Assembly (NCBI GenBank): GCA_013152435.1
Contig: JAADGJ010000062.1
Coordinates: 18,672 to 82,671, forward strand
DNA length: 64,000 nucleotides
From: Chloroflexota bacterium
GTDB lineage: Bacteria; Chloroflexota; Anaerolineae; DUEN01
Reading direction: 5' to 3'
Of the stretch, positions 5,992-37,749 are shown one piece after another (position 1 is the stretch's first letter; every line of letters begins with the position of its first letter). Under the pieces are notes generated by a model, which was not told the origin of the DNA, searched no databases, and was given only the letters and a program-made list of their open reading frames with translations. Made by a program: the position numbers and the translations under genes.

Positions 5992-6017
5992 CTCCTCCTC
6001 TATGTTTGAACCGCGTT

Positions 6018-6030: not shown

Positions 6031-6063
6031 TACGCGATCGAAAGCGAGATTTCATATAGAGGC

Positions 6064-6097: not shown

Positions 6098-6148
6098 ACA
6101 CGAGTGCAAACGAGTCGCAATAGCAATGACGTAGACGGGAGGAGATGA

Positions 6149-6964: not shown

Positions 6965-7020
6965 TGGTCGCCCGTAGGGTGAGCCGGAGCTGAGCAACTG
7001 CACATCGGCCTGCGTCCGAT

Positions 7021-10820: not shown

Positions 10821-10861
10821 TGTGCCTCTCCCTTCGCCTGTTCTCTGGGATCGGGACGGGA

Positions 10862-12300: not shown

Positions 12301-12304
12301 GGGC

Positions 12305-14617: not shown

Positions 14618-14621
14618 AGAT

Positions 14622-15290: not shown

Positions 15291-15371
15291 CGGTAGTTTC
15301 CTTCCGATATGGGCCGAGGGTGGTGGGCGGGGAGGTCCTCCCCGCCCACCACCGATGGTCCGTTCTGTATT

Positions 15372-17420: not shown

Positions 17421-17562
17421 GGGCAAGAACCTCCTTTCTTTGGCTCTGTGGCCGGGAACTTGAAGGTAGCACCGGGGGAAAGTGCCCATGGTGCCGCGTG
17501 AAGAGGCCACGTTCAGTGGCCACTCCTCCCGACCCAGCATACGACAAACCGAGGGAGGTTTC

Positions 17563-17578
17563 TTTGCGCCAACGCAAA
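17563..17578. promoter_or_regulatory. Candidate Crp/Fnr-family binding site, TTTGCG-N4-CGCAAA, between crp and nosZ
   Basis: A perfect 6-4-6 palindrome TTTGCGCCAACGCAAA lies 20 nt after the crp stop and ~145 nt upstream of the nosZ start codon. It resembles the FNR/Dnr-type TTGAT-N4-ATCAA architecture. Confidence 0.4.
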
Positions 17579-17597
17579 TAGCGGCAAGCGTGTGAGC

Positions 17598-18356
17598 TTA
17601 TCGTGCGGTGGGGGCTTCTGCGGGGATGTCCGGAGGCAGATCTTCAGCGATAGTCACCAGGCCATGAGGCCTCAGTACGACCACGCGGGCTCGTCCGCTG
17701 GCGATGAGTCCCTGCTCCTCCCATCGGCTCAGGACGCGACTGACCGTGTACAGGGTCGTGCCCGTCATCTCCGCCAGGTCCTGGCGGGTCAGAGCCAGAT
17801 CGATCAGGATCCCGCCTTCCACCTTGCGCCCGAGCTGGCGCACCAGGCGGAGCAGAGCGCGGGCGATGCGTCGCTCCACCCGCTCCGTCACCAGCTCTCG
17901 AAGGCGGTCTTGCAGATCTCGAACGTGTTGTGCCATCAGATCGATCGCGTTCAGGGCCAGTCGGGGGTAGATCTCCATCAGCCGGGCCATGCGCTCCCCG
18001 TCCCAGGCCAGCGCCTCACAATCCTCCATCGCCTCGGCCGATACGGGGTACGACATGGCGCTCAGCACCGCGATGCACCCGAACATGCGCCCCGGCTCGA
18101 TGAATCCCAGGACGGTCTGGTGTCCCTCTGGAGTGACCTGGGTCAGCTTCACCTGCCCCCGGACGAGCACGTAGAGGAATGAGGCGGCGTCGTCCTGGAG
18201 GAAGAAGAAGCTCCCCCGGGCCACCCGTTTGAAGTAGGCGGTCTGGATCACGTGCATCAGGGTGCTCGGATCCAGGCCCCGGAACAGGTAGATCCGTTGC
18301 AGGTGCTCGACCTGTTGGCTGAGAGGTTCAGAAGCGCTCATGCTTGGATTGTACAC
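17598..18356 (-). CDS. Crp/Fnr-family transcriptional regulator (Dnr/NnrR-like, no Fe-S cysteine cluster)
   Basis: 252 aa. Has an N-terminal cNMP-binding beta-barrel (RGSFFFLQDDAASFLYVLVRGQVKL) and a C-terminal HTH (TRQDLAEMTGTTLYTVSRVLSRWEEQGLI). It lies directly upstream of nosZ on the same strand. Confidence 0.8.
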   Translation of the reverse strand: MYNPSMSASEPLSQQVEHLQRIYLFRGLDPSTLMHVIQTAYFKRVARGSFFFLQDDAASFLYVLVRGQVKLTQVTPEGHQTVLGFIEPGRMFGCIAVLSAMSYPVSAEAMEDCEALAWDGERMARLMEIYPRLALNAIDLMAQHVRDLQDRLRELVTERVERRIARALLRLVRQLGRKVEGGILIDLALTRQDLAEMTGTTLYTVSRVLSRWEEQGLIASGRARVVVLRPHGLVTIAEDLPPDIPAEAPTAR

Positions 18357-21249: not shown

Positions 21250-22206
21250 ATGGGATCTGCCATCCTGGGGAGCGGCCACGCTCCCGGCAAGGTGATCCTG
21301 TTCGGCGAACATGCGGTGGTGTATGGCCGCCCGGCCATCGCCGTGCCGGTGACCCGCGTTCGGGCGGAGGCAACCGTCGCCTCGGGGGAGCCCGGGTCGG
21401 GGCTCTCCATCCATGCCCCGGACCTGGGACGCACCATCTCGCTGGCGGCCGCCCCGGCGGATGAGCCTCTGGCCGCCATCGTGCGGGTGACGCTGGACGC
21501 GTTGGGGGTGACGCCTCCCCCGGATTGGGTCGTGACGGTGCGTTCCACGATCCCGATCGCGGCCGGCATGGGGAGCGGGACCGCCGTATCCGCCGCGATC
21601 GCCCGGGCCCTGGCCGACGCGGCAGGGCGTGATCTGGCACTGCCCGTCCTCTCCGATCTCGTGTACCAGATCGAGAGGCTGCACCATGGCTCCCCATCCG
21701 GGGTGGACAACACCGTGGTCTGCTATGGGCGCCCGGTGTACTTCGTGCGCGGGCGATCCCCTCAGTTGCTTCGGATCGCCCAACCCTTCTGGCTGGTCAT
21801 CGGGGATACGGGCGTGCCCAGCTCCACCCGGGAAGCGGTTGCGCATGTGCGCCGGGCCTGGGAGGCGGATCGCGCTCGCCTGGAGTCCCTGTTTGATGGG
21901 GTGGCGGCGCTGGTGGAACGGGCCCGCGAGGCGATCGAGGCTGGCCGCGTGGAGGTTCTGGGGACGCTGATGGACGAGAATCACGCGCTGCTGTGTGAGA
22001 TGGGAGTGAGCTCTCCCGAGCTGGACCGGCTGGTCTCGGCAGCCCGGGAGCACGGCGCGGCCGGTGCCAAGCTGGCGGGGGCGGGACGTGGCGGCAACAT
22101 GATCGCGCTGGTCCCACCCGAACGGGCGATCTCGGTGGCCGATGCCCTGCGCGCCGCCGGCGCCGTGCGCACCATCACGACCGAGGTGGGCTCGGAGGCG
22201 ACATGA
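21250..22206 (+). CDS. mvk: Mevalonate kinase (GHMP kinase family)
   Basis: Has the N-terminal PGKVILFGEHAVVYG motif, the GHMP ATP-binding loop PIAAGMGSGTAVSAAI, and the C-terminal GAKLAGAGRGGNMIAL. Confidence 0.85.
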   Translation: MGSAILGSGHAPGKVILFGEHAVVYGRPAIAVPVTRVRAEATVASGEPGSGLSIHAPDLGRTISLAAAPADEPLAAIVRVTLDALGVTPPPDWVVTVRSTIPIAAGMGSGTAVSAAIARALADAAGRDLALPVLSDLVYQIERLHHGSPSGVDNTVVCYGRPVYFVRGRSPQLLRIAQPFWLVIGDTGVPSSTREAVAHVRRAWEADRARLESLFDGVAALVERAREAIEAGRVEVLGTLMDENHALLCEMGVSSPELDRLVSAAREHGAAGAKLAGAGRGGNMIALVPPERAISVADALRAAGAVRTITTEVGSEAT

Positions 22207-23579
22207 GCGAACCTTTCCCGACCCTGCGCTCGTTCCTGGCCGACGCGGAGGCCGCGGGCCATCTGATCACCATTCGACGCTCGGTGAGCCCTCACCTGGA
22301 GATGGCCCGGGTGATCCTCGCCCTGGACGGCCGCCCGGTGCTCTTCACCGATGTGCCCGGCTATGCGTATCGCGTGGCCGCCGGGATCTGCTCTGATCGA
22401 CGGTATTTCGCCATGGCGTTGGGCTGTAGGCCGGAGGAGGTCTCCTTCCGCCTGGCCGACGCCCTCTCCTCCCCGCGAAGGCCGCCTGTGTTACAGGACG
22501 CGCCCTGTCAGGAGGTGGTCGAGGAGGACGTCGATCTGGAGCGTATCCCGTTCCTCACCCATTGGGAGGGAGATGCCGGCCCCTACGCGACGGCCGCCGT
22601 GGCGATCGTGAACGACCCGGATACCGGCCCGAACGCGTCCTATCACCGGCTGCTGAGGCTGGATCGGCGTCGTCTCGTGGCGCGGATCATCGAGCAGCGC
22701 GGGACCGATACGGCGCTGCGCAAAGCCGAGGGGGATCTGCCGGTGGCGATCTGCATCGGGCTCCCGCCTCATATCCTGCTGGCCGCGGCCATGTCCCCGC
22801 CGCCTGAGGTGGACGAGATGCACATCGCCCAGGCGCTGGCGCCCACCCCGCTGGTGGCCTGTCGCACGGTTCCCCTGCACGTGCCCGCCGCCGCGGAGAT
22901 CGTCCTGGAGGGCCGGATCACCCGACAGACGGCTGCCGAGGGGCCTTTCATGGATCTGACCGGCACCTGGGATATCGTCCGTCAGCAGCCGGTGATCGAG
23001 ATCGATTGTATCACGCATCGCCGGGACCCCATTTACCAGGCGCTGCTCCCAGGGCGGCTGGAGCATCGGTTGCTGATGGGGATGCCGCGGGAGCCGACCA
23101 TCTTCGCCGCCGTCAACCAGGTGTGCCAGTGTCTCAACGTGTACGTCACGCCCGGCGGGGCCTCCTGGCTGCACGCTGTGGTGCAGATCCGAAAGCGCCA
23201 CCCCGAGGATGGACGGCGCGCGGCCGAGGCCGCCTTTCGGGGGCATGGCTCGCTCAAGCACGTGTGGGTCGTGGATGAGGATGTGGACCTCTTCGATCCC
23301 AACGACGTGGAGTGGGCCATGGCGACCCGGTTCCAGGCGGATCGGGATCTGCTGATCTGGCGGGATCAGCCGTCCAGCTCGCTGGATCCGTCGGCCACCC
23401 ACGTGCCCGGGGAGAAATCTCGCTCGGCCAAGATGGGGCTGGATTGCACGATCCCGTGGGACTCACCCCAGGGGCCCAGCGACCCGGCCGCGTTCCAACG
23501 CGTCCCGATCCCGCACGTCGATCTCACCCCTTACCTGGAGGAGCAGGGAGGGGCGAAGCCATCTCGCGAGCGAGGATAG
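22203..23579 (+). CDS. UbiD-family (prenyl-FMN-dependent) decarboxylase; candidate anhydromevalonate-phosphate decarboxylase
   Basis: 458 aa with UbiD-like architecture throughout. Its start overlaps the mvk stop (ATGA), implying co-translation with mevalonate kinase. Confidence 0.8.
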   Translation: MSEPFPTLRSFLADAEAAGHLITIRRSVSPHLEMARVILALDGRPVLFTDVPGYAYRVAAGICSDRRYFAMALGCRPEEVSFRLADALSSPRRPPVLQDAPCQEVVEEDVDLERIPFLTHWEGDAGPYATAAVAIVNDPDTGPNASYHRLLRLDRRRLVARIIEQRGTDTALRKAEGDLPVAICIGLPPHILLAAAMSPPPEVDEMHIAQALAPTPLVACRTVPLHVPAAAEIVLEGRITRQTAAEGPFMDLTGTWDIVRQQPVIEIDCITHRRDPIYQALLPGRLEHRLLMGMPREPTIFAAVNQVCQCLNVYVTPGGASWLHAVVQIRKRHPEDGRRAAEAAFRGHGSLKHVWVVDEDVDLFDPNDVEWAMATRFQADRDLLIWRDQPSSSLDPSATHVPGEKSRSAKMGLDCTIPWDSPQGPSDPAAFQRVPIPHVDLTPYLEEQGGAKPSRERG

Positions 23580-25802: not shown

Positions 25803-26321
25803 GTGAGTGAATTGTATCAGAATCCCGGGGAACACACAAAAGACGAGGCGCCGCGCCTGTTGGTCGATGCCATGCTGGGCAGGCTGGCGCGCTGGCTCCG
25901 CCTGCTGGGCTGCGATGCCGTGCTGGCTCCCAACGACGCGACCGATATGGAGCTGGTGCGGCGCGCTCGCGCCGAGGGACGCACCATCCTGACGCGGGAT
26001 ACCGCCCTCGCGCGGCGACGCGGCGTGGCCGTGTTGCTGGTCGCCAGCATGGAGTTGACGGCCCAGCTCCGGCAGGTGGTCGGGCAGCTGGGGATCGGTC
26101 GGGAGCGCATCGGCACGCGCTGCCTGGTCTGCAATCACGAGCTCGTTTCCCTGAGCCGGGAGGACGCCCGCGGTCGGGTCCCCCTCTACGTGTGGGAGAC
26201 GCAGCATCAGTTCCACTATTGTCCGCAATGCGATCGGGTCTACTGGGCGGGCACGCACTGGGAACAGATGCGCGCCCGGCTGGATGCCATACTGGACCCG
26301 GACGACCGGACGAGCCGGTGA
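25803..26321 (+). CDS. Mut7-C RNase domain (DUF82) protein with a C-terminal zinc ribbon
   Basis: RLLVDAMLGRLARWLRLLGCDA is the conserved Mut7-C N-terminal block. The C-terminal motifs CLVCNHEL...YCPQCDRVYW form a zinc ribbon. The ORF starts with GTG, so the start is uncertain. Confidence 0.7.
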   Translation: MSELYQNPGEHTKDEAPRLLVDAMLGRLARWLRLLGCDAVLAPNDATDMELVRRARAEGRTILTRDTALARRRGVAVLLVASMELTAQLRQVVGQLGIGRERIGTRCLVCNHELVSLSREDARGRVPLYVWETQHQFHYCPQCDRVYWAGTHWEQMRARLDAILDPDDRTSR

Positions 26322-28192
26322 TCGATCGTCACCGCGCTCCACGGCAGGACCAGCGGATCTCCCAACGGGACCAGATCCGGCCCGGCGTAAAGCCCGATGC
26401 GAAGGCTGTACGGGCCGGGCGGGAGGGTATCCGGCAGGGGGATTGAGTGGCGGTCGCGCAGCACCTCGCCGGGCTGCCACAGCGACGTGGGGTAGTACAT
26501 CCCGCCGGGGGGGGCGTCGTGCTGTCCGATCTTCTCCCCATTTCCCGCCAGCAAGTGCACAAAGGACGTGTAGTCCCGTTCCAGGGACCTCTTCGGCTCC
26601 CAGTAGAGCGTCAGCTCTAGCGGCTGCCCCGGCTGCGGATCGGGCGTGTCGGTTGCCACGGCCAGCAGGATAAGGGCGTCCCCCACGACGCCCAATGGCT
26701 CACCGGGCGGCCTGGTCACGCTCCCCTCGACCTGCACGACGGCTCCCACGGGCCGTAAATCGAAGCGCACGTCCAGCCCCGGCATCGGCTTGACCAGGAA
26801 GACCGGACGCCCCGTGTCCAGGGCGGACGCCGTCACCTGGCCCACGTTGAGCCATCCCGGTCGCATCACCATCAGGGGGAAGAGCCCGGTGAGATCCGGC
26901 CGTCGATGTTCCACCTGCTGGAGGTAGATCAGCGGCACCATCTCATCGCGATCGTTGCTGACCAGGATCGCCTGCTGGGGCAGCGGCTCGCTCAGGATGT
27001 TCTCCCAGAACGTTCGGGCCTCTCGATCGGCGCTCCGGTCCACGCGCGGGAAAAAGGTCACCATGAGGAAGATCGGCAACAGGAGTCCCGCGGCCGCGAT
27101 CGCGAGCGCCAGCGCCCGTCTCCATCGAATCGCCAGCGTCGCCAGCGCGGAGAGCCCCACGCCGGCCCATAGGGCTGCGATGAGATAGACCGGCACGTAC
27201 AGGACGTACACGTCGCCGATGCCGTAGAACAGGTTGAAGCCCACCTGCGCCAGGAGCATGAGGCCGGTGGGCGCCAGGAGGTCCCAGCTTCTCCGCTCGA
27301 TCATCCAGGCCAGCCCGATGATGGCCAGGGCCAGACCTATCTCGCTCAGGTTTTGGGATATGAGGGAGAGGGCGGCGGGGATCTGTCCCCAGGCCGCCGC
27401 GGGCGTCAGCAGCTCCCCGGCGAAGACGCGTCCCGTCACGAACGCCAGGAAGCCGTCCAACGAGCGATCGTACAGGGGGAGCGTCTCGCCGGGGCCGAGC
27501 GGGACCCACAGGTACGGCGTGGCCGGCGCCCGCAACGGGATGTACAGGTAGAGCAGTTGGGGCAGGATCAGACCGGCCAGCATCCTCCCCACCGTGCCAC
27601 GATCCACGGCGGGACGCTTCAGCCAGGCCCACGCCAGCAATCCAGGCAGCCAGAGGATCGTCGTGCGGTGGTGGGCCAGGCCGAGCCCGACGACCCAGGC
27701 CAGGAGCACCGGGGCTCGTTGGCCTTCATCCTCCCGCACGATCAGCCACAGCGCGCAGGCCAGCAAGAGCGCGTGCAGCGTGTACACCTCGGCGATGACG
27801 GCCTGGGACCAGAAGGTGGGATTGGCCGCGAATGCCAGCGTCGCGCTCGCGGCGGCCAATCGTCGCGCCGAAAGGGGTAGCCGGGGCGACACGCGGCTGA
27901 TCATCCCCAGGGCGACGAGGTAGCCGATGCCCACGGCCGTCCCGCCCCAGGCGGCCGATAGGAGGTTCATGCGCCAGGGGGGCGTGCCCAGGACAAGCAG
28001 GTGGCTCCACAGCCAGCCCAGCAGGAGGTATAGAGGGTATCCCGTGGGGTGTGCCAGCCCCGCGATCCACGCCGCGACCTGGAACTCGGCCGGATCGCCG
28101 AAGAGGAGCCCCGGGGCCAGCGTGCGCAGGTAGAGGATGCCGGCGGACAGGCCGCATCCCGCCGCCAGCCAGCGATCCACCCTCCGGCTCAT
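26240..28192 (-). CDS. GT-C-fold polytopic membrane glycosyltransferase-like protein (DUF2723/PMT-like) with a C-terminal beta-rich module
   Basis: Real start is the ATG at 28192 (MSRRVDRW...), which overlaps the upstream gene's stop as ATGA. It has ~12 TM helices with PMT/ArnT-like N-terminal loops, then a soluble C-terminal domain containing LELTLYWEP...DYTSFVHLL...YYPTSLWQPGEVLRDRHSIPLPDTLPPGPYSLRIGLYAG. Confidence 0.65.
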   Translation of the reverse strand: MSRRVDRWLAAGCGLSAGILYLRTLAPGLLFGDPAEFQVAAWIAGLAHPTGYPLYLLLGWLWSHLLVLGTPPWRMNLLSAAWGGTAVGIGYLVALGMISRVSPRLPLSARRLAAASATLAFAANPTFWSQAVIAEVYTLHALLLACALWLIVREDEGQRAPVLLAWVVGLGLAHHRTTILWLPGLLAWAWLKRPAVDRGTVGRMLAGLILPQLLYLYIPLRAPATPYLWVPLGPGETLPLYDRSLDGFLAFVTGRVFAGELLTPAAAWGQIPAALSLISQNLSEIGLALAIIGLAWMIERRSWDLLAPTGLMLLAQVGFNLFYGIGDVYVLYVPVYLIAALWAGVGLSALATLAIRWRRALALAIAAAGLLLPIFLMVTFFPRVDRSADREARTFWENILSEPLPQQAILVSNDRDEMVPLIYLQQVEHRRPDLTGLFPLMVMRPGWLNVGQVTASALDTGRPVFLVKPMPGLDVRFDLRPVGAVVQVEGSVTRPPGEPLGVVGDALILLAVATDTPDPQPGQPLELTLYWEPKRSLERDYTSFVHLLAGNGEKIGQHDAPPGGMYYPTSLWQPGEVLRDRHSIPLPDTLPPGPYSLRIGLYAGPDLVPLGDPLVLPWSAVTIDHRLVRSSGSSMASSRARICSQCVPAQ

Positions 28193-30975
28193 GGCGTCGG
28201 CTCCAACCTCACCCAGTCCACGGCGGCCGCCAGCGCCCGGCGGTCCGGGTTGCGCCCGATGCGGAGATAGGCCCCGCCGGATCGGACGACCTCCGCGGCG
28301 CTCCCGGGCGGCGCCCCCTTCACACCGATCAGCGCGTGGGAGGCGCCCGGCACCATCCTGGGATCCTGCCCCGCGCCGATGGTCTGCAGCGCGGCCCATG
28401 CCTGGTCCGTCAGGTGATCGATGGCCGGACCTCGCGTGGCCACGACTACCAGCATGCCGTCTGGCACGTCCTGCAGGAACTGCGCCAGCCGCTCGGCCTC
28501 GTAGATGTTGGCGGCGGTGTCGAACCCTCGCTTCTCCAACAGGCGACCGTCGCGGGGATCCACCACGGCCACGTTGTACCCGCGTCGTCCGGCCGAGGCG
28601 TCCACCCGCTCGCCCGCGTCGTCCTCCAGCGTGATGTAGGCGAAATCGGCCGATGCGTTGATCTCGATGTCCACCGGCGTTTCCACGCCCGTCTGCCCGA
28701 TGCGCGCGTCGGCCGGGAGCACATCGCGAGGGCGGGCCGCCCAGGCGAACTCCAGGGCGATCCGGTTGAGTCCACTCCGCACGATCCCCGCTGGGACCTG
28801 GACCTCGTAGGTCTCCCAGTCGGCGGCCAGTGTGATCCGATCCCCCACCGGCCGGCCGTTGAGCAGCACCCGCATGTGTTGAGGAGGGGCATCGGGGTAG
28901 GCGAAGGGATGGACGCGCAGGGAGAGCCGGTAGGGGGGCGCCGGCGATGTCAGGCGTATCGGCAGGAACAGGCGCGCCCGTCGTGCCCCCGCCCAGTTGG
29001 CCGTGACCCCGAAGATCTGCTCGTCGTCGTGCCAGCCCTCGCCGCGATAGGGGGCCGATCCCTCGACCCCGAGGTCCAGCTCGAAGTCCGGGCGCCCTTC
29101 CGGCTGATAAACCCGGTAGGCCTGCACGCCATCGCGATCGTAGAACGGCTGGCGGTCGACCGGCAGCAGCTCCAGCGTGTAGTCTCGGACGGCCGCGTAG
29201 GTGTCCGCGTAGGGGAACCGGCCGGGGATGGGCGGCAGGACGATGAGGTAGCGCACGTCGTAAAGATACATGAGATCGGCCGCCTGGGCGCGCGCGGCCG
29301 CGTCCACCTCCGGCGGGACTGGCCGCCCGAACTCCGTTTCCGTGATGGCCTGGAACAGCGGCAGGCGGCGGAAATACGCCATCTTGAACTCAGGGGCACG
29401 GCTGATGTTTCCGCCCAGCATGGGCTTCCCGTGCACCGTCTGGTAGAACTGCACCTGCGTTCGCTCCGATCCGAGGACGCCGAAGGAGTTGCGCCACCCC
29501 AGCGGCAGTTGTAGGAGGGCGAAGTCCCCCGGCTCGTTGGCGATCTGCTCGTAGATCGGAGGCACGCGGGCGTCGGTCAGCGGGAGGGGCACGGCCGCGT
29601 GCTCGAACAAGATCGCCGCGGCCAACAGCCCGGCCAGCGCGCCGGCGATCCCCTCGCGTCGATGGCCGGGTGAGAGCCTGCGGATGGCCCACGCGATGGC
29701 ATAGGCGGCCAGCACCGCGATCCCCAGCATCAGGATCACGCTGTTGCGGTTGGGAGCCCGGTTGGCCTTGACGAAAGGGATATAGTGTAAGAGCGCGAAG
29801 GGCATGGGGAACGTGACGCCGCGGTCCCCCAGCAAGCGGTCCAGGCTAAACTCGTATCGGCCGTTGATCTGAAGCAGCGGTCCCAGGCAGAACGCCCCGA
29901 AGAGGACCGCCACCCAGCGCCAGGGACGGCCCCGCTTCCAGGCGGCCACAGCCCCGATGACGGCCAGCGCCAGGGTCACCCATCCGACGAACACGGTGTT
30001 GATGTCGGAGAAGCGCGCTGTGCCCTCCTCCACCGCCCGCAGCGCGCGGGGCCACTCCTCGCCCCAGAGGGGATGGAGGGCGGTGGGCGTGATGAACCCC
30101 AGCAGATCTGTGCTGAGCTTCAGGCCCTCTCCCCATCCCTCCAGCGCGTAGTCGCCGCTCACGAATTCACGCACGATGGGCACCAGCGCCGGGCTCCAGA
30201 TGAGGGCGGCCACCACGGCCACGATGGCCATGCGGGCTGCCAGCGAGGCGATCTCGCGTCCCGCGTCCTTAGGCTGTTTGTGGGCGCGCACGGATTGCGC
30301 CAGACGGAACCCCAGAAGCACCACGGTCAGGATCGCCAGGAAGACGGCGAAGATCATCTCGGCCAGCGCGGCCAACGCCAGGAAGAACCCGGCCAGGGAT
30401 GCATCCCGCCATCCCGGGCGACGCAGCGTGCGTATGAGGTACAGGGCGTAGAAGGGGATCCACTGGGTGGTCACCATGTCGTAATGCCCCAGCGCGGCGT
30501 AGATGGCCCGGTTGGATCCGAAGGCGTAGATCAGGCCGGCGATCAGCGGGACCAGGTGGCCGAGGGTCCCGGACGGCAGGCGGTGCTCATCGGCCAGCAA
30601 CTGGCGCACGAGCAGGTAGGTTCCATAGCCGCTGAGGGTCGTCGCCAGGATCAGCGTGGCGTTGGAGGCGGGCACCACTCCCCACGCCAGCAGCATCGGC
30701 AGGGCCATCAGCGCGTTGAAGAAGTTGTACGTGTACAGGATCAGGTCAATGCCCAGCGGATACCAGATGAGGTCGGTGTGCAGGGGGGAGGTGTGCAGGT
30801 CCAGGAGGGCGTGTTTGAAATACCAGATGTTCCAGAGGAACGTGGACTCGTCAAAGGCCCAGGTCGCGCTGCCGGGCGTGTGGGTGGCGAAGCGCAGGAG
30901 CAACGGGTAGCTCAAGAGAAGAGCCAGGATCAGGAAGGCGGCCGGGATCAGCCACTGCCATCGCTTGCGTATCAT
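28189..30975 (-). CDS. Large (928 aa) polytopic membrane protein with a GT-C/YfhO-like N-terminal domain and a large extracytoplasmic C-terminal domain
   Basis: The N-terminal ~470 aa are multi-TM. The C-terminal ~450 aa are soluble. The extreme C-terminus ([49 protein letters not shown]) tentatively resembles an ILEI/FAM3-like domain. It is translationally coupled to the flanking GT-C genes. Confidence 0.6.
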
Positions 30976-31002
30976 ATCCTCCCACTCGCGTGCGCCATGG
31001 GG

Positions 31003-33408
31003 TTAGGGCGCCAGGGTCACCGAGAGCTCAATGCGATCCGTCAGCGGCTGGCCGGCCTCGTCCAGGATCGACAGCCGCTCCCCGGTGCGCCAGTCGTACC
31101 AGCCCAGCGCGATGGTGTAACGCCCGGCGGGCGCCCCGGGCGGCAAGGCGACCTCCACCTGATCGCGCACCGGCACCCCGGGCGGCCAGGCATCCGTCGG
31201 GAACAGCCCGGCGACCGGAATGGTGTCCGCCTGGGTGACGAGCTCGTTCTCCTGGTTGATCAGGTGCACGAACATCGTGTACGACTTCTCCGGTAGTCGC
31301 TTGAAGCGCCACACCGTGTCGATGATCACCCGGGCTGGGTCGCCGATGGCCGGCCGGGTCTGGATGTCCAGCAGTTGCAGTCCCTCGCTGAACTCCGCCG
31401 GGACGACGCGCGGCAGCTCGAAATCGGGATCGGGGCCGCCCGGCGATAGCCGAACCTCCGCTACCCCCGGGTAATCCATGCCGACGCGCACGGCGTAAAG
31501 CCCGAACGGCGCGTCCTGGCCGATGGTGACCCGTTGCCAGGTCGCCACCACGTCTCCCGCGTGCCACTCCCCGTAGCGATAGGGCAGCGTCCCCGTCCAC
31601 ACGCCGCGTGGTATCCCCTCCGCATCCTCCACCACCAGCTGCACCGAGGGGGCCTCCGTGGGGGGCACATCCCCGGGATCATCCACCATCCAGTAGAGGG
31701 TCACCTCCAACGCGCCGCCGGGCCGCGCCTCGCCGGCGATGTCGTATCCGACCAGTCGGGGCAGCCCCTGGCCGGGCAATCCCTGGGTGCGGGCAGGTGG
31801 CCCCCCTTGATCGACGCGGTAGACCTCCAGTCCCGGCTCCCCTCTGGGGCTCTTCACCACGGCCAGCGGCGTCATCACGGGCAGCAGGCGTTGTAACCGT
31901 TCCCGATCCGGCATGGCCGAGTTGCCCAACAGGTAGATCGCCCCGCCGGGCGGCGGCATAAGGAGCGCCTTCCTGGCGTCGAACCATCGCAGCTTCGGAT
32001 CGCTGCGATCGAAGAACTCGGTCAGCGGCACCTCCTCGTACAGGAGCATGAACGAGGGATGGCGGTAGATATCGGCCGAGAGGTAGGCCAGTTGCTCCGG
32101 CTGGTTGCGCTTTAGCCAACGCGCCGCGGCGACCACATCTCCATCGAACGCCTCGAACGCGCCCGCGGAGCGTCCCCACGACACGAAGTACCCCCACCAG
32201 TTCAGCGTGGCATGGAAGATGAGCGCGCCGGCCAGCACCGCGGCGAAGGCCGTCTGTCGGTCCTTGGGGTTTACCCGGGCCCGCGCCCACTCCGCCACCT
32301 GCCAGGCTCCGATGGCCGGGAAGAAGTAGAGCCCGGGGAGCACTCCCAATGCTCGCGGCAGCGCGGGAATGCGGTCCACGGCCAGGAAGGTGGGGATCAT
32401 CATGACGGGCCACCACAGGAGGAGGAAGAGGAACCGCCGTCTGCGCCACTGTTGGATCAGATAGAGCACGCCGACGATGGCCAGGGCGCCGGTGATCACG
32501 TCGAACACTGGACGGCCCGGCAGGTTGTAGAACCAGTCCCGGTCCCCCAGCCCCGCCACGAAGAACTGCAACGTGTTGCCGAACAGCGCCAATACCGATT
32601 TCACGATCGGATTGCCGGAGCTGACGTGCGGGTTGCCGACGAACACCTCGCCCGCGCGAGAGGTGAAGCTGCCGGGGTGCTGGATGAAATAGCGGAACAG
32701 GGGGAGGAAGATCACGGTGGCGGCCGCGTACATGGCCAGGATGCCGCCCGGGAAGCGGCGCAGGATGGATGGCCGTCCCCGGCGGCCGTTGATCCACCAC
32801 TCGACGGCCAGATAGAGCGCCAGGAAGCAGGGCACCAGCCGGGAGGCGGTGTAGAAGTACAGGTTGATCCCCATGGCGACGCCGGATCCCACCATCCAGC
32901 GCCAATCTCGCCGGTTGATCCCCCGCCAGAACGCCCAGAAGCCGATGGTGGTCATCAGCGGCGTGAACACGCCCCGCACCCCGAAGCGGCTGAAGTGCAC
33001 ATGCCAGAAGCTGGTGGCCAGGAACCCGGCGGCCAGCAGCGGCACGGGGGTGTCCTCCAACGGGGTGCGGCGCAATAGCTCCTTGCCCAACCAATACGTC
33101 ATGGGCACGGTGATCAGCCCGGCGACGACGGAGGGGAAACGCACGGCGAACTCGTTAACGCCGAAGAGGAGGAAGCTGAAGGCGACCAGGAACATGTGCA
33201 GGCCCTCGCGCCCGTAGTTGGCGGGGAAGAAGACCTGCCCTCGCCCGGCGAGGACGTCGAGCGCGTCCAGCCCGTCGACCGCCTCATCGCCGAAGAGGCC
33301 GGGTGGGATAGTCCCGATCCGCCACAGCCGGAAGGCCACGGCGACGACGATCAGGAGAAACAGTGGGCTGATCGGCCAACGCCGACGGAGAAAGGATTTC
33401 ATGTCCAT
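31003..33408 (-). CDS. PMT/ArnT-family (GT39/GT83-like) polyprenyl-phosphate-sugar-dependent glycosyltransferase with a duplicated C-terminal module
   Basis: The N-terminal motif IPPGLFGDEAVDGLDALDVLAGRGQVFFPANYGREGLHMF is characteristic of the first periplasmic loop of GT-C mannosyl/arabinosyl transferases. It has ~12 TM helices, and its C-terminal domain carries two copies of the TLYW...FVHL...GLYD-type module. Confidence 0.7.
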   Translation of the reverse strand: MDMKSFLRRRWPISPLFLLIVVAVAFRLWRIGTIPPGLFGDEAVDGLDALDVLAGRGQVFFPANYGREGLHMFLVAFSFLLFGVNEFAVRFPSVVAGLITVPMTYWLGKELLRRTPLEDTPVPLLAAGFLATSFWHVHFSRFGVRGVFTPLMTTIGFWAFWRGINRRDWRWMVGSGVAMGINLYFYTASRLVPCFLALYLAVEWWINGRRGRPSILRRFPGGILAMYAAATVIFLPLFRYFIQHPGSFTSRAGEVFVGNPHVSSGNPIVKSVLALFGNTLQFFVAGLGDRDWFYNLPGRPVFDVITGALAIVGVLYLIQQWRRRRFLFLLLWWPVMMIPTFLAVDRIPALPRALGVLPGLYFFPAIGAWQVAEWARARVNPKDRQTAFAAVLAGALIFHATLNWWGYFVSWGRSAGAFEAFDGDVVAAARWLKRNQPEQLAYLSADIYRHPSFMLLYEEVPLTEFFDRSDPKLRWFDARKALLMPPPGGAIYLLGNSAMPDRERLQRLLPVMTPLAVVKSPRGEPGLEVYRVDQGGPPARTQGLPGQGLPRLVGYDIAGEARPGGALEVTLYWMVDDPGDVPPTEAPSVQLVVEDAEGIPRGVWTGTLPYRYGEWHAGDVVATWQRVTIGQDAPFGLYAVRVGMDYPGVAEVRLSPGGPDPDFELPRVVPAEFSEGLQLLDIQTRPAIGDPARVIIDTVWRFKRLPEKSYTMFVHLINQENELVTQADTIPVAGLFPTDAWPPGVPVRDQVEVALPPGAPAGRYTIALGWYDWRTGERLSILDEAGQPLTDRIELSVTLAP

Positions 33409-33409
33409 G

Positions 33410-34252
33410 TCAGTCTGGAACGGCGATGAGGTAGCGGTGGTGCGCCCAGATCGCCTTCACCCACCAGGGCAGCGGGGCACGTTCAAGCCACGCGTGGCGC
33501 ATCACCCGTTCGTACAGGTCCGGCTCTTTCCCCAAATAGTAGGCCATCGTGGACCATTGCCAGTTGTCGCCGCTAAATCGGGCGTTGAGTCGCGATGAGC
33601 GGATCCCGAGGCGCCGCAGCACCTCCGTGGCGGGCATCACCGTGTCAGGCCAGGGCGGGACGTCCAACACCCCCTGTTCCACCACGCGGGCGCCGGCCCC
33701 CTCGATCAACCGACGGATGTACCCCATGCGCGTCCATTGCTCGTCCACCGTTCGGAAGAAATCGCGGTCGATGAGGTACTTGCGCATGAAGTAGCCCACC
33801 TGCCAGCGGTTCGGCATGGCCACGAATACGACCTTGCGGGAACAGCGCACCAGCTCGCGCAACAGATCGCCTGGGTTGGGCAGATACCAGAGGCCGGCCC
33901 ACTCCCAGCATAGGTCGAAGGAGCGATCGTCGAAGGGAAGGGGATACCAGCCGGATTCGCTCACGTCCACCAGCGCCACGTCCAGCCCCAGCTCATCCCA
34001 GATGCGCTGCACGCCGGCCAGCCGCTCCGGCTCATCGTCGACCAGGGTGACCTCGCAGCCGGCCTGGGCCAGGACCACGCTGTTGATCCCGCTGACGCCG
34101 GCCATGCCGTACAGGGGCGCCTCCAGGACGCTCTGGACGTGGAATCGCTTGCGCAGGTGGTCCAGGAAATCGTTGAGGACGAAGCGCTCGTAAACCAGCC
34201 CCAGCCCCTCGTCGTAGTCGGTCAGGTAGCGTTTCCAGTCGGGTTTGGCCAC
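33410..34252 (-). CDS. Class I SAM-dependent methyltransferase
   Basis: Has the Rossmann motif VLEAPLYGMAGVSGINSVVLAQAGCEVTLVDDEPERL. A 2-nt gap separates it from the downstream GT-C gene. Confidence 0.75.
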   Translation of the reverse strand: MAKPDWKRYLTDYDEGLGLVYERFVLNDFLDHLRKRFHVQSVLEAPLYGMAGVSGINSVVLAQAGCEVTLVDDEPERLAGVQRIWDELGLDVALVDVSESGWYPLPFDDRSFDLCWEWAGLWYLPNPGDLLRELVRCSRKVVFVAMPNRWQVGYFMRKYLIDRDFFRTVDEQWTRMGYIRRLIEGAGARVVEQGVLDVPPWPDTVMPATEVLRRLGIRSSRLNARFSGDNWQWSTMAYYLGKEPDLYERVMRHAWLERAPLPWWVKAIWAHHRYLIAVPD

Positions 34253-34267
34253 GGTGACTCCCCGGCG

Positions 34268-35488
34268 TCAGTGGGCGGTATCTTCCGGTTCCGACGCTTC
34301 GCCGTCTTCCGGGGCGAAGGTGACGACCAGCCGGTCGCCATCGTAGCGAGCCCCCACCACCTCGAGCCCGGCCAGGACGCGAGGCAGCATCAGGTTTCGC
34401 TTCCAATTCCCGATGCGGATCACCAGTTCGTCGTGAGCCGTCTTCGTCAGATGGATCCGGGAGCGGTCGGCCAGGGGCAGCGGCAGGCTCAGGTAATATC
34501 GATCGCCTCGCTTGGTGATCCGCTGCGTTCGGCCCCGATAGAACACCTGCGCCGGATCCCGGTCGCCGAAGATAGCCGTCGCCATCTTGCGTAACATCTC
34601 GGGGCCCACCACCTCCTGATCGAAGAGCGGGACGTCGAAGATGGGTAGCGGGCTGAACGTCTCCTCGATCGTGCGATGGTAGCGTTCCTGGATATCCTTC
34701 CACGTGGCGAAATAGCTGTCCCCGACCCGGTCGGGGATCATGCGGTTGCAGATGATGGCGTCCGTGGCGTATCCGTAGAGGTTCAGGTAGGTGAACGCTC
34801 GTTGTGCTTCCTTGATCACCATCTTCTCAGGGTTGAGCACCAGTCGGGCGGTGGTGCGCTTCGGGTTGCTCAGCAGACCATGCATGCGATCGAGCTGTCG
34901 GAGGAGTTCGGCCGCCGCGTCGAACACGGCCTCGTCGGGCAGAGGGACATCTGTGACGGCCTTGAGGAGGGGACGCGCCACCTGCATCGCTTTGCGCTCG
35001 ATGGGGAAGATCTTCTCCAGATACCAGCGCGCCATCTCAGGAAAGGCCAATAGTTGCAACGTGGCCCCCGTCGGCGCGCAATCCACGACGATCACATCGT
35101 ACTCGCCCAGATCGTTCAGATGGGTGATCTGCATGAGGCTGGCCAGCTCCTCCATGCCGGGGAGGACGCTGGTCTCCTCGGCAAGCAGTTCGTCCATGCC
35201 GCGCCAGGCGAAAACGGCGGCCAGGTACTCCTGGACCTTGCCCCAATACTTCTCCATCTGGTACAGGAGGTCGATCTCCTGCCCCCATAGGTTCGACGCG
35301 ATCTGGGTCGGCTCCGGCCCGATGGAGCAATCGAAGCTGTCCGCCAGGCTGTGCGCCGCGTCTGTACTTAACACGATGGTGCGGTACCCTAGCTCGGCGC
35401 AGAGCACCGCGGTCGCCGCGCTGACGCTGGTCTTCCCGACTCCTCCTTTGCCCGTGTACAGGATGATGCGAGCCTGCTCATCCCTCAT
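34268..35488 (-). CDS. ArsA/GET3-family P-loop ATPase with a C-terminal HSP20-like domain
   Basis: Has the P-loop GKGGVGKTSVSAATAV and the DAAHSLADSFD switch. The C-terminal ~100 aa are a beta-sandwich-like extension. It is the first gene of the operon that continues into the methyltransferase and the three GT-C genes. Confidence 0.8.
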   Translation of the reverse strand: MRDEQARIILYTGKGGVGKTSVSAATAVLCAELGYRTIVLSTDAAHSLADSFDCSIGPEPTQIASNLWGQEIDLLYQMEKYWGKVQEYLAAVFAWRGMDELLAEETSVLPGMEELASLMQITHLNDLGEYDVIVVDCAPTGATLQLLAFPEMARWYLEKIFPIERKAMQVARPLLKAVTDVPLPDEAVFDAAAELLRQLDRMHGLLSNPKRTTARLVLNPEKMVIKEAQRAFTYLNLYGYATDAIICNRMIPDRVGDSYFATWKDIQERYHRTIEETFSPLPIFDVPLFDQEVVGPEMLRKMATAIFGDRDPAQVFYRGRTQRITKRGDRYYLSLPLPLADRSRIHLTKTAHDELVIRIGNWKRNLMLPRVLAGLEVVGARYDGDRLVVTFAPEDGEASEPEDTAH

Positions 35489-35510
35489 CTTTCCTCAACC
35501 CGATCCCATC

Positions 35511-35673
35511 CTCTCAAAGCGTATCTGAAGATTTACCGGTATGGTATCTGAGGGAGACCTTCAGATACCAGCTCTACAGGGGGAGGTGTGGAGGGGAACT
35601 CCCCTCTCGGAGGAACTCCGCTCCTCCGGGCCTCCATACAGAGGCAACGACATTTCTCAGACACGCTCTCAGA
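35511..35673 (-). promoter_or_regulatory. Structured 5'-leader element of the ArsA-glycosyltransferase operon; copy 1 of the TCAGACACGCTCTCAGA-type motif
   Basis: On the minus-strand RNA, segment A (UCUGAGAGCGUGUCUGA, 35673-35657) and segment B (GUAUCUGAAGG, 35568-35559) can each pair with segment C (CUUCAGAUACGCUUUGAGAG, 35530-35511). The A:C pairing keeps 15 of 16 positions with two G-U wobbles. Internal GGAGGA...UCCUCC and GAGGGGA..UCCCCUC hairpins are present. The SD GAGGAAAG and the ATG follow C. Confidence 0.35.
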
Positions 35674-35826
35674 TCTCGGTAGGGTGTCCTCTTCCTTGGA
35701 TACGCTGTCCAGACCTCATCTACCTTCGTTGGCCCGCCGGCGGGGCCGGAAGCGGCGCCCTCATCTCTCGCGGGCTTCGTCCCACGTCCAGGGGGAGCGT
35801 GCCTCGGCCGTGGCTCGATGTCCGGG

Positions 35827-37749
35827 CTACGGGGTACGATCGATCTGTTCTCGCTCCCGGAACACCCGATAGTCCAGCGTAGAGAAGGGGTTGTCCAGCT
35901 CTTCGGTTTGCCGCAGGAACAGGCGGTCCTCATCGGTGAGGGATCCCCGCCGCGCCATGCTGATCAGGTGGTTGAAGCGCGCCAGGTGTCCCTGGAAGCG
36001 GTTGATCGCGTACTCCCTCGCCTGTCCCGTGGTGATCAGGAACGGCCAGTCGCTGGATTCCAGCAGCAGGAGCTCCCGACCGGCCTGGTTCAGCACCTCC
36101 GCGATCTCTCCCTCGGCATCCGGATAGCGCGCCACCATCTCTTCCATCATCCGCTCGGCCGCGTGGATCAGCGGCCACATCCACTCCGTGTCCGGGTTGA
36201 GCCAGGTCCAGTGCCCTCCGCCGTTGCCCCAGGAGCTCTCCGGGATCTCCAGGACCTCCTCCGGCGGATGGGCTTCCAGATAGGCCCGCGCCGTGGTCAG
36301 TTCCACCTGCGGGTCACGGGCGAGGCGGCGCAATACCTCTTTCAGCCAGGCGACGCCCTCAAACCACCAGTGCCCAAACAGCTCGGCGTCGTAGGCGGAC
36401 ACGATCACGCCGTACTCGCCGGTGCGATCGTGGTATTCCGCCAGTCGGTCTCGCACCAAGTTAACGAAGTGATCCGCGTGGAGGTTCACCTGCTGAAAGG
36501 CCGGGTATGGATCGTACAGCTCCTTCTGTCCCAGATCGACCCGTGCCCCGGTGATGCGCCAGTATTGGATGCCGGAGACGTCGTCCTTGCGATGGAACTC
36601 GCGGTAGAGGAAATCGCCCGGGTAGCCGTGGGAGGCTGACCACACCTGGAGCCCGGTGCGTTCGTCCCTTCCAAATACCGCCACGTCCGTGCCGTGGACG
36701 TAGTAGGGGCGAAAGGTGGTGCCGGCCCGGGCGCGCGGCCGCTCGTATTCTCGCGTGACGAGCTTGCGCTTGGGGATCGCGCCATAGGGGCCGATGGCGT
36801 CCCCCGCGGCCTTGCCGACCACTGCCCCGCCTTCGATGACGTGGGTGTCGGTGAAGAAGTACCCGATGTTAAAATCGGCCAGGAACTCCTCGATCCCCGG
36901 CTTCACATAACTCCGCCCTCCCTCCTCTTTGATGTAGGCCGGGCGGTATCCGCATTCGGGCAGCCAGATCCCCTTCGAGAACTGCCCCATGTGGCGATGC
37001 GTGGTCTCCACGCCGGTGTGTAGTTGGGCGTATATGCTGGAGTCCCGCTCCAGCAGGGGGGTATAGCAGTGGGTGGCCATGGAGGTGAGCACGTCGATCA
37101 CGCCCATCTCCTGCAGGCGGCGAAACGCGCCGGCGAGATCTCGGCCGTAGCGTTTGCGGAATGAATCCTGGATGCCCTGATACCAGTCTCGATACCATTT
37201 GGCCAGGTAGAGCAGGTGATCCCGTTGCTTCTGGACTTGCTCGGCCGCTTTTTCATCGACCGGGATGGGGGGCGGCGGCAGCGAGGGGTCCCGTTCGAGC
37301 TCGGCCAATGCCTTCTGGACCTCTTCGGCGTCCTCGTCCAGCCCGCGCTCGGCCGCGTCCTCCAGCAGCTCCTGGCGCCTCCGCTCCAGGGCGGCCTGCC
37401 GACGAGCCAGCGCCGCGTCGTGTGCCTCCCGCCACTCCTCCAGAACGGGGCGGCTGAACCGCTGGATGTCCGCCTCCACCAGGGCCATCCGTTCGTCCAG
37501 GTAGACATCGAAGTGGTCGCACACGTCTGGATCGGCGATCTGCTCCAGGAGGATCGGTGTGAGCCCGATGGTGAGTCGGGGCTGCTCGCCTTCCTCCACC
37601 AGATCGTATAGCGCGTTCAGAAGCGGGATGTACGTCTCCGCCATGGCCTCATGCACCATCTCCTCGCCGTGCGGCCAGCGCCCTGCCCGACGGACGTATG
37701 GTAGATGGCTGTGCAGTACGAGGACGAAGGCCCCGATCTCTTCCGCCAT
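35827..37749 (-). CDS. GH57-family 1,4-alpha-glucan branching enzyme
   Basis: The N-terminal FVLVLHSHLPYVR is the GH57 signature. The 640-aa length and C-terminal helical domain fit the TK1436/Thermus-type branching enzyme. Confidence 0.85.
   Translation of the reverse strand: MAEEIGAFVLVLHSHLPYVRRAGRWPHGEEMVHEAMAETYIPLLNALYDLVEEGEQPRLTIGLTPILLEQIADPDVCDHFDVYLDERMALVEADIQRFSRPVLEEWREAHDAALARRQAALERRRQELLEDAAERGLDEDAEEVQKALAELERDPSLPPPPIPVDEKAAEQVQKQRDHLLYLAKWYRDWYQGIQDSFRKRYGRDLAGAFRRLQEMGVIDVLTSMATHCYTPLLERDSSIYAQLHTGVETTHRHMGQFSKGIWLPECGYRPAYIKEEGGRSYVKPGIEEFLADFNIGYFFTDTHVIEGGAVVGKAAGDAIGPYGAIPKRKLVTREYERPRARAGTTFRPYYVHGTDVAVFGRDERTGLQVWSASHGYPGDFLYREFHRKDDVSGIQYWRITGARVDLGQKELYDPYPAFQQVNLHADHFVNLVRDRLAEYHDRTGEYGVIVSAYDAELFGHWWFEGVAWLKEVLRRLARDPQVELTTARAYLEAHPPEEVLEIPESSWGNGGGHWTWLNPDTEWMWPLIHAAERMMEEMVARYPDAEGEIAEVLNQAGRELLLLESSDWPFLITTGQAREYAINRFQGHLARFNHLISMARRGSLTDEDRLFLRQTEELDNPFSTLDYRVFREREQIDRTP

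Follow-up and report, generated by a model that had tools for sequence, protein, structure and literature searches.

What would a bacterium do with three very large membrane glycosyltransferases of the GT-C fold, encoded one behind the other after an ATPase and a methyltransferase? The question is raised by a 64,000-nucleotide (nt) stretch of Chloroflexota DNA (contig JAADGJ010000062.1 of assembly GCA_013152435.1, positions 18,672 to 82,671; hereafter the window, whose own numbering is used throughout). An earlier note on this DNA had proposed that five consecutive minus-strand genes form an operon for a dedicated glycosylation machine. The analysis described here indicates that the operon is real, that its three large proteins, all of them GT-C enzymes, belong to unrelated subfamilies, and that the evolutionarily stable unit is a translationally coupled pair of them, whose companions vary. 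The reading that we favor, with a probability of about 0.55 for the whole, is extracytoplasmic glycosylation dependent on a lipid-linked sugar, that is, a variant of the multi-component GT-C systems built from uncharacterised families.

Operon structure and the three GT-C enzymes

The five genes lie on the same strand throughout, from 35488 down to 26240, and encode an ArsA/Get3-like ATPase with an HSP20-like tail, a class I S-adenosylmethionine (SAM) methyltransferase (MT) and the three large membrane proteins, here designated GTC1, GTC2 and GTC3 (Table 1). Read directly from the sequence, the first three junctions measure 15, 1 and 27 nt; at the fourth (-4 nt), the stop of GTC2 and the start of GTC3 overlap as ATGA. 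Gene spacing is therefore operon-like, and the tight array claimed in the earlier note, with its 0-30-nt spacers, was found at the positions it gave; of the several overlaps it mentioned, only that between GTC2 and GTC3 exists. All five genes combine a GC content at third codon positions (GC3) of 0.83-0.89 with one of 0.41-0.50 at second positions (GC2), a signature of genuine genes in this genome and hence of strong coding character; GC content in 2-kb segments of the window is ~0.56-0.70. The window's proteins are identical or nearly identical to proteins of Chloroflexota metagenome-assembled genomes, and the genome is of the Anaerolineae/Caldilineae type.

The longest open reading frame for GTC3 has 719 codons and would overlap GTC2 by 210 nt. 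Homologues of the protein are 650-690 amino acids (aa) long and their alignments begin at residues 3-21; because the ATGA start fits these lengths, GTC3 is taken to be 650 aa long. Accordingly, of the range of 719-928 aa reported before, the sizes of GTC1 (801 aa) and GTC2 (928 aa) stand and the lowest figure does not. At the other end of GTC3, homologue alignments stop at residue 602-603, leaving the last ~47 residues unconserved, and a convergent gene on the plus strand overlaps the final 82 nt (26240-26321). The latter gene, which we take from a sequence motif to be of the Mut7-C family, bounds the operon, and the same arrangement is repeated in a near-identical relative (L005; L-numbers are labels for loci of relatives). 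The tail of GTC3 may be read-through into the neighboring gene and not functional sequence.

Each of the three large proteins has a polytopic N-terminal membrane module with the GT-C core fold, and in each an acidic residue or residues are found in the first extracytoplasmic loop after the first transmembrane segment (TM1), in GTC1 by reading only. Their assignment to the GT-C class, already made in the earlier note, was upheld by domain hidden Markov models for GTC1 and GTC3 and by a fold model for GTC2. GTC1 matches Pfam PMT_2 at 38.8 bits (cut-off 26.1; E = 1.4e-9) and PMT at 28.0 bits (cut-off 22.7), both matches spanning residues 71-207 only, and shows weak NCBIfam matches to Agl23 and ArnT. 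Its acidic motif, GDEAVDG after TM1, was read from the sequence without alignment. Enzymes of the GT39 Pmt family carry a luminal MIR domain loop and a PMT_4TMC C-terminal module. GTC1 gave no Pfam match to either of these, nor any sequence match in the PDB at E <= 1; because MIR and PMT_4TMC are missing, GTC1 is assigned, on sequence grounds, to the broad PMT_2/ArnT-like group and not to the bona fide GT39 Pmt enzymes.

In GTC2 the sole sequence-level match is to the ILEI domain (Pfam E = 4e-18), which is why the structure of this protein was modelled. The prediction, made from 30 homologues, has a predicted local distance difference test (pLDDT) score of 81.8 and divides the chain into a membrane domain with a GT-C fold (residues 1 to ~460), a mixed alpha/beta region (~465-605), a beta-sandwich resembling carbohydrate-binding modules (CBM) of families CBM35/6/22 (~610-790) and the ILEI domain (798-888). 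All 30 homologues keep the first-loop residues D42 and E43. The top fold matches are protein-modifying GT-C enzymes; AftA and AftD score almost as high.

GTC3 passes the Pfam TMEM260-like model (PF11028, formerly DUF2723) at 94.3 bits (cut-off 24.2; E = 1e-26) and aligns by phmmer over residues 18-435 with the human TMEM260 structure 9rql (E = 1.4e-11). D33 of GTC3 aligns with D52, the predicted catalytic residue of TMEM260, an enzyme responsible for O-mannosylation of IPT-type domains from dolichyl-phosphate mannose (PMC10214176). Metazoan TMEM260 selects its substrates through a C-terminal tetratricopeptide repeat (TPR) region; in the corresponding C-terminal part of GTC3, Pfam detects no TPR family at E <= 0.01, and a beta-rich domain is found instead.

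Altogether, the three enzymes represent three unrelated subfamilies (PMT_2-type, ILEI-bearing and TMEM260-like). The suggestion that they are paralogous failed: BLAST detects no similarity between their membrane domains, and hhalign assigns a probability below 1% to a relationship of the GTC2 family with GTC1 or GTC3. As judged from sequence comparison, the GT-Cs of the operon are not recent paralogues.

They were also said to differ in their C-terminal domains. GTC2 is indeed distinct, with its ILEI and CBM-like modules, but GTC1 and GTC3 share a domain of ~100 aa, which internal and cross-protein BLAST comparisons find in two copies in GTC1, one in GTC3 and two in a fourth GT-C encoded elsewhere in the window. 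This domain is beta-rich and conforms to the approximate motif L.L.W....Y..FVHL.....Q.D..P....PT..W.PGE...D......P...P.G.Y.L..GLY. Pfam has no family for it; the nearest is Wzt_C, at 29.0 bits (cut-off 30.4) on the C-terminal repeat of the fourth GT-C, and GTC1 yields a weak match to NPCBM_assoc. It looks like a carbohydrate-binding module without a named family. The same domain recurs at the C-termini of many large, otherwise unrelated membrane proteins of Chloroflexota (our families f13 and f25; L042, L062, L074, L077 and others).

Gene order in related Chloroflexota

Conservation was followed from three anchors: the MT (80 loci in genomes of GTDB species, with 10-kb flanks), GTC2 (80 metagenome loci, L095-L174, and four genome contigs) and the ATPase. 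Counts of neighbors use tblastn coordinates; a gene caller based on GC3 missed the MT in ~10 loci.

The association that persists is that of GTC2 with GTC3. A TMEM260-like GT-C gene is present within 2.5 kb downstream of GTC2 in 39/43 metagenome loci having at least 3 kb of downstream flank. It often begins within tens of nucleotides of GTC2, frequently overlapping it, and the pair is kept across a range of 45-75% identity. Among the genome loci, the pair occurs in L001, L019, L030, L032, L036, L041, L046, L063 and L085-L087. The evolutionarily stable unit is thus the translationally coupled pair of ILEI-bearing and TMEM260-like GT-Cs.

The companions of this pair are the MT, sugar-nucleotide enzymes or a GT2 enzyme of the polyprenyl-phosphate sugar synthase type. 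The MT lies directly upstream of GTC2 in 7/55 loci and within 6 kb in 10/28, and a GT2 of this type lies within 2 kb of GTC2 in 13/42 metagenome loci. One or the other (MT within 6 kb or GT2 within 2 kb) accompanies the pair in 19/25 well-flanked metagenome loci, and both in 0/25. The idea that MT and GT2 substitute for each other was abandoned, L087 holding both within 6.5 kb. Two genome loci illustrate the setting. L085 reads DegT aminotransferase, GT2, ILEI-bearing GT-C, TMEM260-like GT-C; L087 reads LPG_synthase_TM, GT2 (a full-length match to ArnC and PgfS), epimerase, ILEI-bearing GT-C, TMEM260-like GT-C. In one sub-clade the two GT-C genes are separated by the GT2 gene, which is read from the opposite strand.

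The complete set behaves differently from the pair. The earlier note had named a lack of co-conservation as a refuting outcome, and by that standard the whole set fails: the five genes in full order occur together in L005 only. Relatives at 74-85% identity keep GH57-ArsA-MT-GTC1-GTC2 without GTC3 (L007-L009, L094, L096), where GH57 designates the branching-enzyme gene that also precedes the operon in the window and which, in these relatives, lies 18-28 nt from the ATPase gene. Arrangements in other clades include ArsA-MT-Uma2-GTC1-like (L014, L018 and L016, the last from 'Ca. Amarolinea'), ArsA-MT-radical SAM-GTC2 (L043, L072), GH57-MT (L006, L048, L052) and, in 12 loci, MT-GTC2-GTC3 without the ATPase. 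In Caldilineaceae, a RecN-like gene and NfeD come before the MT and a second MT or a phosphoglucomutase-like gene after it, with no GT-C directly downstream. Where the flanks suffice, the ATPase gene immediately precedes the MT in 9/69 loci, and a close gene of the GTC1 or GTC2 type immediately follows it in 16/65, leaving 49/65 without one; the count of GT-Cs after the MT rises if divergent, unclassified large membrane proteins are included.

The genes inserted between MT and GT-C in these arrangements encode a putative endonuclease of the Uma2 family (~10850-11550 in L014, L016 and L018) and a radical SAM/SPASM protein (~6000-7200 and 10850-12050 in L043 and L072); members of the latter family are also found near the MT in L049 and L082.

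In the clade of the window, the GH57 gene, which lies outside the coordinates of the earlier note, is part of the conserved block. It is on the same strand as the operon, 338 nt upstream of the ATPase gene, and is found directly upstream of ArsA or MT in L006-L009, L048, L052, L093, L094 and L096, with gaps to the ATPase or MT gene of -4 to 28 nt in L009, L093 and L094; over all relatives the spacer from GH57 to the next gene ranges from -4 to ~840 nt. In relatives, GH57 is possibly part of the same transcription unit. The protein scores 502-525 bits with NCBIfam branching-enzyme models, below their equivalog cut-offs. At 640 aa the window copy is ~110 aa longer than that of L093 (530 aa); its NCBIfam matches fall in two stretches, of which the main one begins near residue 175, and residues ~100-175 are charge-rich.

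The 338-nt gap contains a perfect 9-bp inverted repeat (GGTATCTGA-N9-TCAGATACC, at ~35540-35566) with no T-run. A consensus scan of this region found no sigma-70-like promoter and terminator-like sites at chance level, no Rfam family lies in the spacer, and Rfam and tRNA scans of the operon region came out empty. These scans are neutral as to co-transcription and speak neither for nor against it.

Proposed mechanism and alternative explanations

By analogy with all characterised GT-C enzymes, each of the three proteins would work on the outer side of the cytoplasmic membrane, where it would take a sugar from a polyprenyl-phosphate donor and, by means of its acidic first-loop residue, transfer it to an extracytoplasmic acceptor. 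Their soluble C-terminal modules, ILEI and CBM-like in GTC2 and the shared beta-rich domain in GTC1 and GTC3, would serve to position the acceptor or the growing glycan. In the reading that we prefer, GTC3, and perhaps GTC1, would add the first hexose to Ser or Thr residues of secreted or envelope proteins, after which GTC2 would bind this sugar through its lectin-like modules and extend it.

The lipid-linked donor would be made by a GT2 enzyme encoded elsewhere. In related loci such a GT2 directly adjoins the pair, which is indirect support for a polyprenyl-phosphate donor. Within the window, the nearest candidate is the product of a GT2 gene 20 kb from the operon. It belongs to a second glycosylation cluster at 55-62 kb, which the earlier note had pointed out as a source of donor and which proved real in Pfam searches: GT2, GT4, the fourth, PMT_2-type GT-C, a GalE-like epimerase and another GT4. 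The NCBIfam models that the GT2 matches best (dolichyl-phosphate hexose transferase, ArnC, PgfS, PpgS and AglJ) all score below their equivalog cut-offs. No GtrA-family match was obtained among the scanned window proteins, small open reading frames being outside the systematic search. Elsewhere in the window (21250-23579, plus strand), the gene for a kinase of the GHMP family and the beginning of one for a UbiD-family decarboxylase overlap; these may form an isoprenoid or mevalonate-type pair with a bearing on the supply of polyprenyl carrier.

As to the acceptor, we prefer protein O-glycosylation of secreted or envelope proteins, because the affinities to TMEM260, to PMT_2 and to the stem of POMGnT1 point to O-mannosylation machinery and the top folds are those of protein-modifying enzymes. 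The likelihood of a wall polysaccharide or lipoglycan is only a little lower, the scores of AftA and AftD being close behind. What an extracytoplasmic acceptor might look like is illustrated by a probable surface protein with thioester (TED), Big_1 and GEVED domains encoded at 3352-4971 on the minus strand, a gene unlinked to the operon. A far more specific version of the O-glycosylation reading can be formulated, in which the ILEI-bearing and TMEM260-like pair would be an obligate initiator and extender of bacterial protein O-glycosylation, assembled from metazoan-type O-mannosylation modules (the catalytic module of TMEM260, the stem lectin of POMGnT1) and wired, in some Chloroflexota clades, to a Get3-like ATPase and a dedicated MT. 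In this full form we regard the proposal as a long shot.

Several observations weigh against the favored reading of lipid-linked, extracytoplasmic glycosylation. The membrane domain of GTC2 has no sequence-level match to any characterised GT-C, and its assignment comes from a predicted structure with several low-confidence loops. The operon contains no GT2, flippase or candidate acceptor gene, so that donor and acceptor are guesses. The fold search with the MT was unspecific. Finally, the ATPase may be more than a bystander: ArsA-MT adjacency is seen in three separate clades of the MT tree, and a GT-C follows the MT in 7/8 ArsA-linked loci as compared with 7/49 loci without ArsA (Fisher p = 9e-5, in a test that treats loci as independent when the ArsA-linked ones come from three MT-tree clades only).

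These last figures are also an argument for the view of the earlier note, that all five proteins constitute one dedicated machine. The ATPase would then chaperone or energise some step, for example the delivery of a lipid-linked intermediate, of a tail-anchored partner or of a hydrophobic client, and the MT would methylate the product of the GT-Cs. The three clades concerned are not sisters and differ in the type of GT-C present. Spacing is tight, including that between ArsA and MT (15 nt in the window, between -38 and 45 nt in L014, L016, L018, L043, L072, L080 and L094), and the Get3d relatives of the ATPase enclose a closed hydrophobic chamber from which a lipid-sized ligand was co-purified (PMC10248533). 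We nevertheless consider the dedicated machine unlikely. Apart from the non-independence of the loci, the ATPase lies within 6 kb of GTC2 in just 2/28 loci, against 10/28 for the MT; most MT loci, as noted above, have no close GTC1- or GTC2-type gene directly downstream; and in genome JARYMM01 the MT (L012) and the GT-C pair (L085) are on separate contigs. The properties of the ATPase and the MT themselves, described below, argue in the same direction. Of the machine originally envisaged, the GT-C glycosylation part thus holds and the place in it of the ATPase and MT is weakened.

The family assignments of these two proteins agree with the earlier note. The ATPase matches Pfam ArsA_ATPase (E = 1e-93) and ArsA_HSP20 (E = 4.5e-19), passes the NCBIfam model for the TRC40/GET3/ArsA subfamily (TIGR00345, 278 bits, cut-off 135), and has an intact P-loop (GKGGVGKT at residue 13, a deviant Walker A); with its C-terminal alpha-crystallin domain, it is a member of the Get3/TRC40 proteins bearing such a tail. 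A group of ArsA-type ATPases that end in an alpha-crystallin domain, with members in Chloroflexi, has been described without an assigned function (PMC6593721, PMC10248533). The protein is ~65-70% identical across Chloroflexota, and the nearest solved relatives of its ATPase domain are the archaeal Get3 homologues 3zq6 and 3ug6. A role as arsenite-pump ArsA in arsenic resistance was rejected. The chain has one ATPase domain and not two homologous halves, it falls short of the true-ArsA equivalog models (TIGR04291, 102 bits for a cut-off of 650; NF041417, 130 bits for a cut-off of 800), and no ArsB/Acr3, ArsD, ArsR or ArsC was found among the Pfam-scanned window genes, a scan that left out ~41.4-47.7 kb.

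Orthologues of the ATPase at 64-67% identity occur in varied contexts: their neighbors are an epimerase together with a Band_7 gene, a Tricorn protease, RodZ together with a monogalactosyldiacylglycerol (MGDG) synthase, or GH57, the MT lying 4 kb further along in this last locus. No tail-anchored protein is encoded in the operon. The MT was considered as a tail-anchored client and discarded, since it has no hydrophobic or transmembrane segment and its C-terminus is a beta-strand within the fold. On the simplest view, this Get3-like member of the alpha-crystallin-tailed group is a housekeeping chaperone for membrane proteins and not a dedicated component; in some clades its gene would share a transcript with the MT and GT-C genes. 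Recurrence of the order ArsA-MT-(x)-GT-C in three clades keeps a functional link alive, at low probability. Just downstream of the ATPase orthologue in L090 (7535-12622), genes for an RVT_1 reverse transcriptase, a bAvd accessory protein and an Lcl_C-domain protein make up a set that resembles a diversity-generating retroelement.

The MT matches Pfam Methyltransf_11 (E = 2e-7) and has a conserved Trp-rich C-terminal extension. Its relatives, at ~65-75% identity, are present in 386 GTDB species, those listed being all Anaerolineae- or Caldilineales-type Chloroflexota; of 1894 homologues, the best 120 are all at least 66% identical, and an alignment of 16 sequences has a mean column identity of 70%. 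The AlphaFold model (pLDDT 83) is that of a soluble protein without transmembrane segment, the C-terminal strand forming part of the fold. Foldseek matches are generic small-molecule and sugar O-methyltransferases (SpnF, AtmM, RebM; TM-score ~0.5), and the profile finds weak matches in the PDB (E ~1e-4), including RebM and the D-glucose O-methyltransferase AtmM. The MT, a cytoplasmic enzyme conserved throughout the lineage, probably methylates a sugar or glycan intermediate, because its recurrent neighbors are GT-C genes, the GH57 branching enzyme, a phosphoglucomutase-like gene and epimerases. Among the 80 MT-anchored genome loci, the phosphoglucomutase-like gene, a label given by eye from the sequence, follows the MT in ~11 (Caldilineaceae), epimerases in several and GH57 in ~6.

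A second alternative, which we hold to be more doubtful still, is an accident of gene order: three independent GT-Cs of different pathways and a housekeeping ATPase and MT would merely be co-transcribed in this lineage. Chloroflexota loci are indeed crowded with large GT-C-like membrane proteins (the fourth GT-C of the window, families f13 and f25, the YfhO-like f107), GTC1-like genes of Caldilineaceae stand on the opposite strand, and the composition of the operon is a mosaic that varies by clade. What such an accident does not account for is the adjacency, often with overlap, of GTC2 and GTC3 in nearly all loci across a wide range of identity, or the regular presence of MT or GT2 beside them.

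The least probable alternative is that MT and upstream GH57 make a cytoplasmic methylated alpha-glucan similar to mycobacterial methylglucose lipopolysaccharide (MGLP), the GT-C genes being mere neighbors: the positions of GH57 and of the phosphoglucomutase-like gene, the AtmM and RebM matches and the pairing of SAM methyltransferases with a GH57 gene in the mycobacterial cluster (PMC2674218) speak for it, but the GH57-MT link is found in only ~10 of the ~170 loci examined, less often than that of MT with GT-C genes, the sugar O-methyltransferase matches are weak and unspecific, and beside the MT there was no sign of an Rv3032-type alpha-1,4-glucosyltransferase, an acyltransferase or GpgS.

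Relation to described systems

The window holds a further cluster, for nitrous-oxide reductase (10416-18356, minus strand). In addition to the genes listed in Table 1, it includes a cytochrome c, a Crp-type regulator and a 222-aa open reading frame without Pfam match.

Table 1. Positions in the window of the operon, its flanks, protein domains and other features.
Feature	Position (nt)	Strand	Remarks
ArsA/Get3-like ATPase with HSP20 tail	34268-35488	-	406 aa; operon gene 1
MT (class I SAM methyltransferase)	33410-34252	-	280 aa; GTG start, GGGGAG ahead
GTC1 (PMT_2-type GT-C)	31003-33408	-	801 aa
GTC2 (ILEI-bearing GT-C)	28189-30975	-	928 aa; GGGAGG ahead of start
GTC3 (TMEM260-like/DUF2723 GT-C)	26240-28192	-	650 aa from ATGA start
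Shared domain in GTC1	31477-31800 and 31096-31386	-	aa 537-644 and 675-771
ILEI domain of GTC2	28312-28584	-	aa 798-888
Shared domain in GTC3	26387-26710	-	aa 495-602
Intergenic region 5' of ATPase gene	35489-35826		338 nt; presumed promoter region
GH57 1,4-alpha-glucan branching enzyme	35827-37749	-	640 aa; Pfam Glyco_hydro_57 and BE_C
Mut7-C-like gene (presumed), convergent	25803-26321	+	From translation; bounds operon
GT2, polyprenyl-phosphate sugar synthase type	55256-56011	+	251 aa; Pfam Glycos_transf_2 E = 2.5e-29
Fourth GT-C (GTC4), PMT_2-type	57393-59861	+	822 aa; Pfam PMT_2 E = 1.7e-11
Shared domain in fourth GT-C	~58900-59800	+	Two copies
NosZ-like protein	15372-17540	-	nos_propeller and cupredoxin
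NosD-ABC ATPase fusion	12305-14617	-	770 aa; unusual fusion
NosY-like permease	11467-12300	-	

The earlier note had called the system undescribed. This is fair for the protein families involved; the general logic, a lipid-linked sugar and extracytoplasmic GT-C enzymes working as a multi-component glycosylation system, is already on record (PMC8035078, PMC11127046, PMC11092751). Like GTC1 to GTC3, the GT-Cs of the GtrA/GtrB/GtrC, CsbB/YfhO, ArnC/ArnT and streptococcal Pgf (PgfS-PgfE-PgfM1-PgfM2) systems are extracytoplasmic enzymes with an acidic outer-loop motif. The gene content of Pgf is matched by L085 and L087, where a GtrB/ArnC/PgfS-like GT2 and an epimerase or aminotransferase stand beside two GT-C genes (PMC11092751, PMC8035078, PMC11127046). 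The operon of the window differs from these systems in lacking a GT2, in the fact that no GtrA-type flippase was seen and in having three GT-Cs in a row after a Get3-like ATPase and an MT. Unlike the YfhO and GtrC types, moreover, its GT-Cs are TMEM260-like, ILEI-bearing and PMT_2-type proteins with large lectin-like C-terminal domains.

Other comparisons concern single components. POMGnT1 carries an ILEI-like stem on a GT-A enzyme, whereas the fusion partner of the ILEI domain in GTC2 is a GT-C enzyme. With the mycobacterial arrays of polyprenyl-phosphate-dependent GT-Cs (Pmt, AftA-D, EmbA-C) there is no sequence-level relationship, and the operon lacks an arabinogalactan or lipoarabinomannan context. 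In the mycobacterial MGLP cluster, the Rv3030 MT gene lies beside the GH57 gene Rv3031 (PMC2674218), a proximity shared by the window, with GH57 one gene upstream of the MT, and by L006, L048 and L052, with GH57 directly upstream; no MGLP-type alpha-1,4-glucosyltransferase, acyltransferase or GpgS was found among the genes flanking the operon or in the Pfam-annotated related loci. The ATPase resembles plant and cyanobacterial Get3d and the 'Group 6' bacterial homologues, which include Chloroflexi, in its single Get3 and alpha-crystallin domains and in an intact P-loop whose Walker A lysine is also reported for the Chloroflexi members (PMC6593721, PMC10248533). It differs in that its full-length match to the Get3d/NosAFP equivalog model NF050088 (142.7 bits) is below the cut-off of 325 and in that its ATPase domain is closer to archaeal Get3. 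In the literature on alpha-crystallin-tailed Get3 homologues, we found no operonic link to MT or GT-C genes.

The literature searched likewise yielded nothing on bacterial TMEM260-like (DUF2723) or ILEI-bearing GT-C proteins beyond a passing mention of distant TMEM260 homologues, and no description of the pair that they form or of its operonic link to an alpha-crystallin-tailed Get3 homologue. What is new, therefore, is a widely conserved pair of ILEI-bearing and TMEM260-like GT-Cs in Chloroflexota, with an occasional operonic link to a Get3 homologue; the mechanism in its general form, transfer by GT-Cs outside the membrane from a lipid-linked sugar, is known, and the finding extends it. Recurrence of the ATPase-MT-GT-C arrangement is one of few genomic clues to what bacterial Get3 homologues with an alpha-crystallin tail do, and a glycosylation pathway wired to ATPase and MT, if true, would give these proteins their first physiological context. 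The pair itself is kept, often with translational coupling, across Anaerolineae and Caldilineae, bacteria that are abundant, filamentous and poorly cultured and whose envelope chemistry is largely unknown. Identification of its product would add a glycosylation pathway to the biology of the Chloroflexota envelope and could reveal the origin of the metazoan TMEM260 and ILEI modules.

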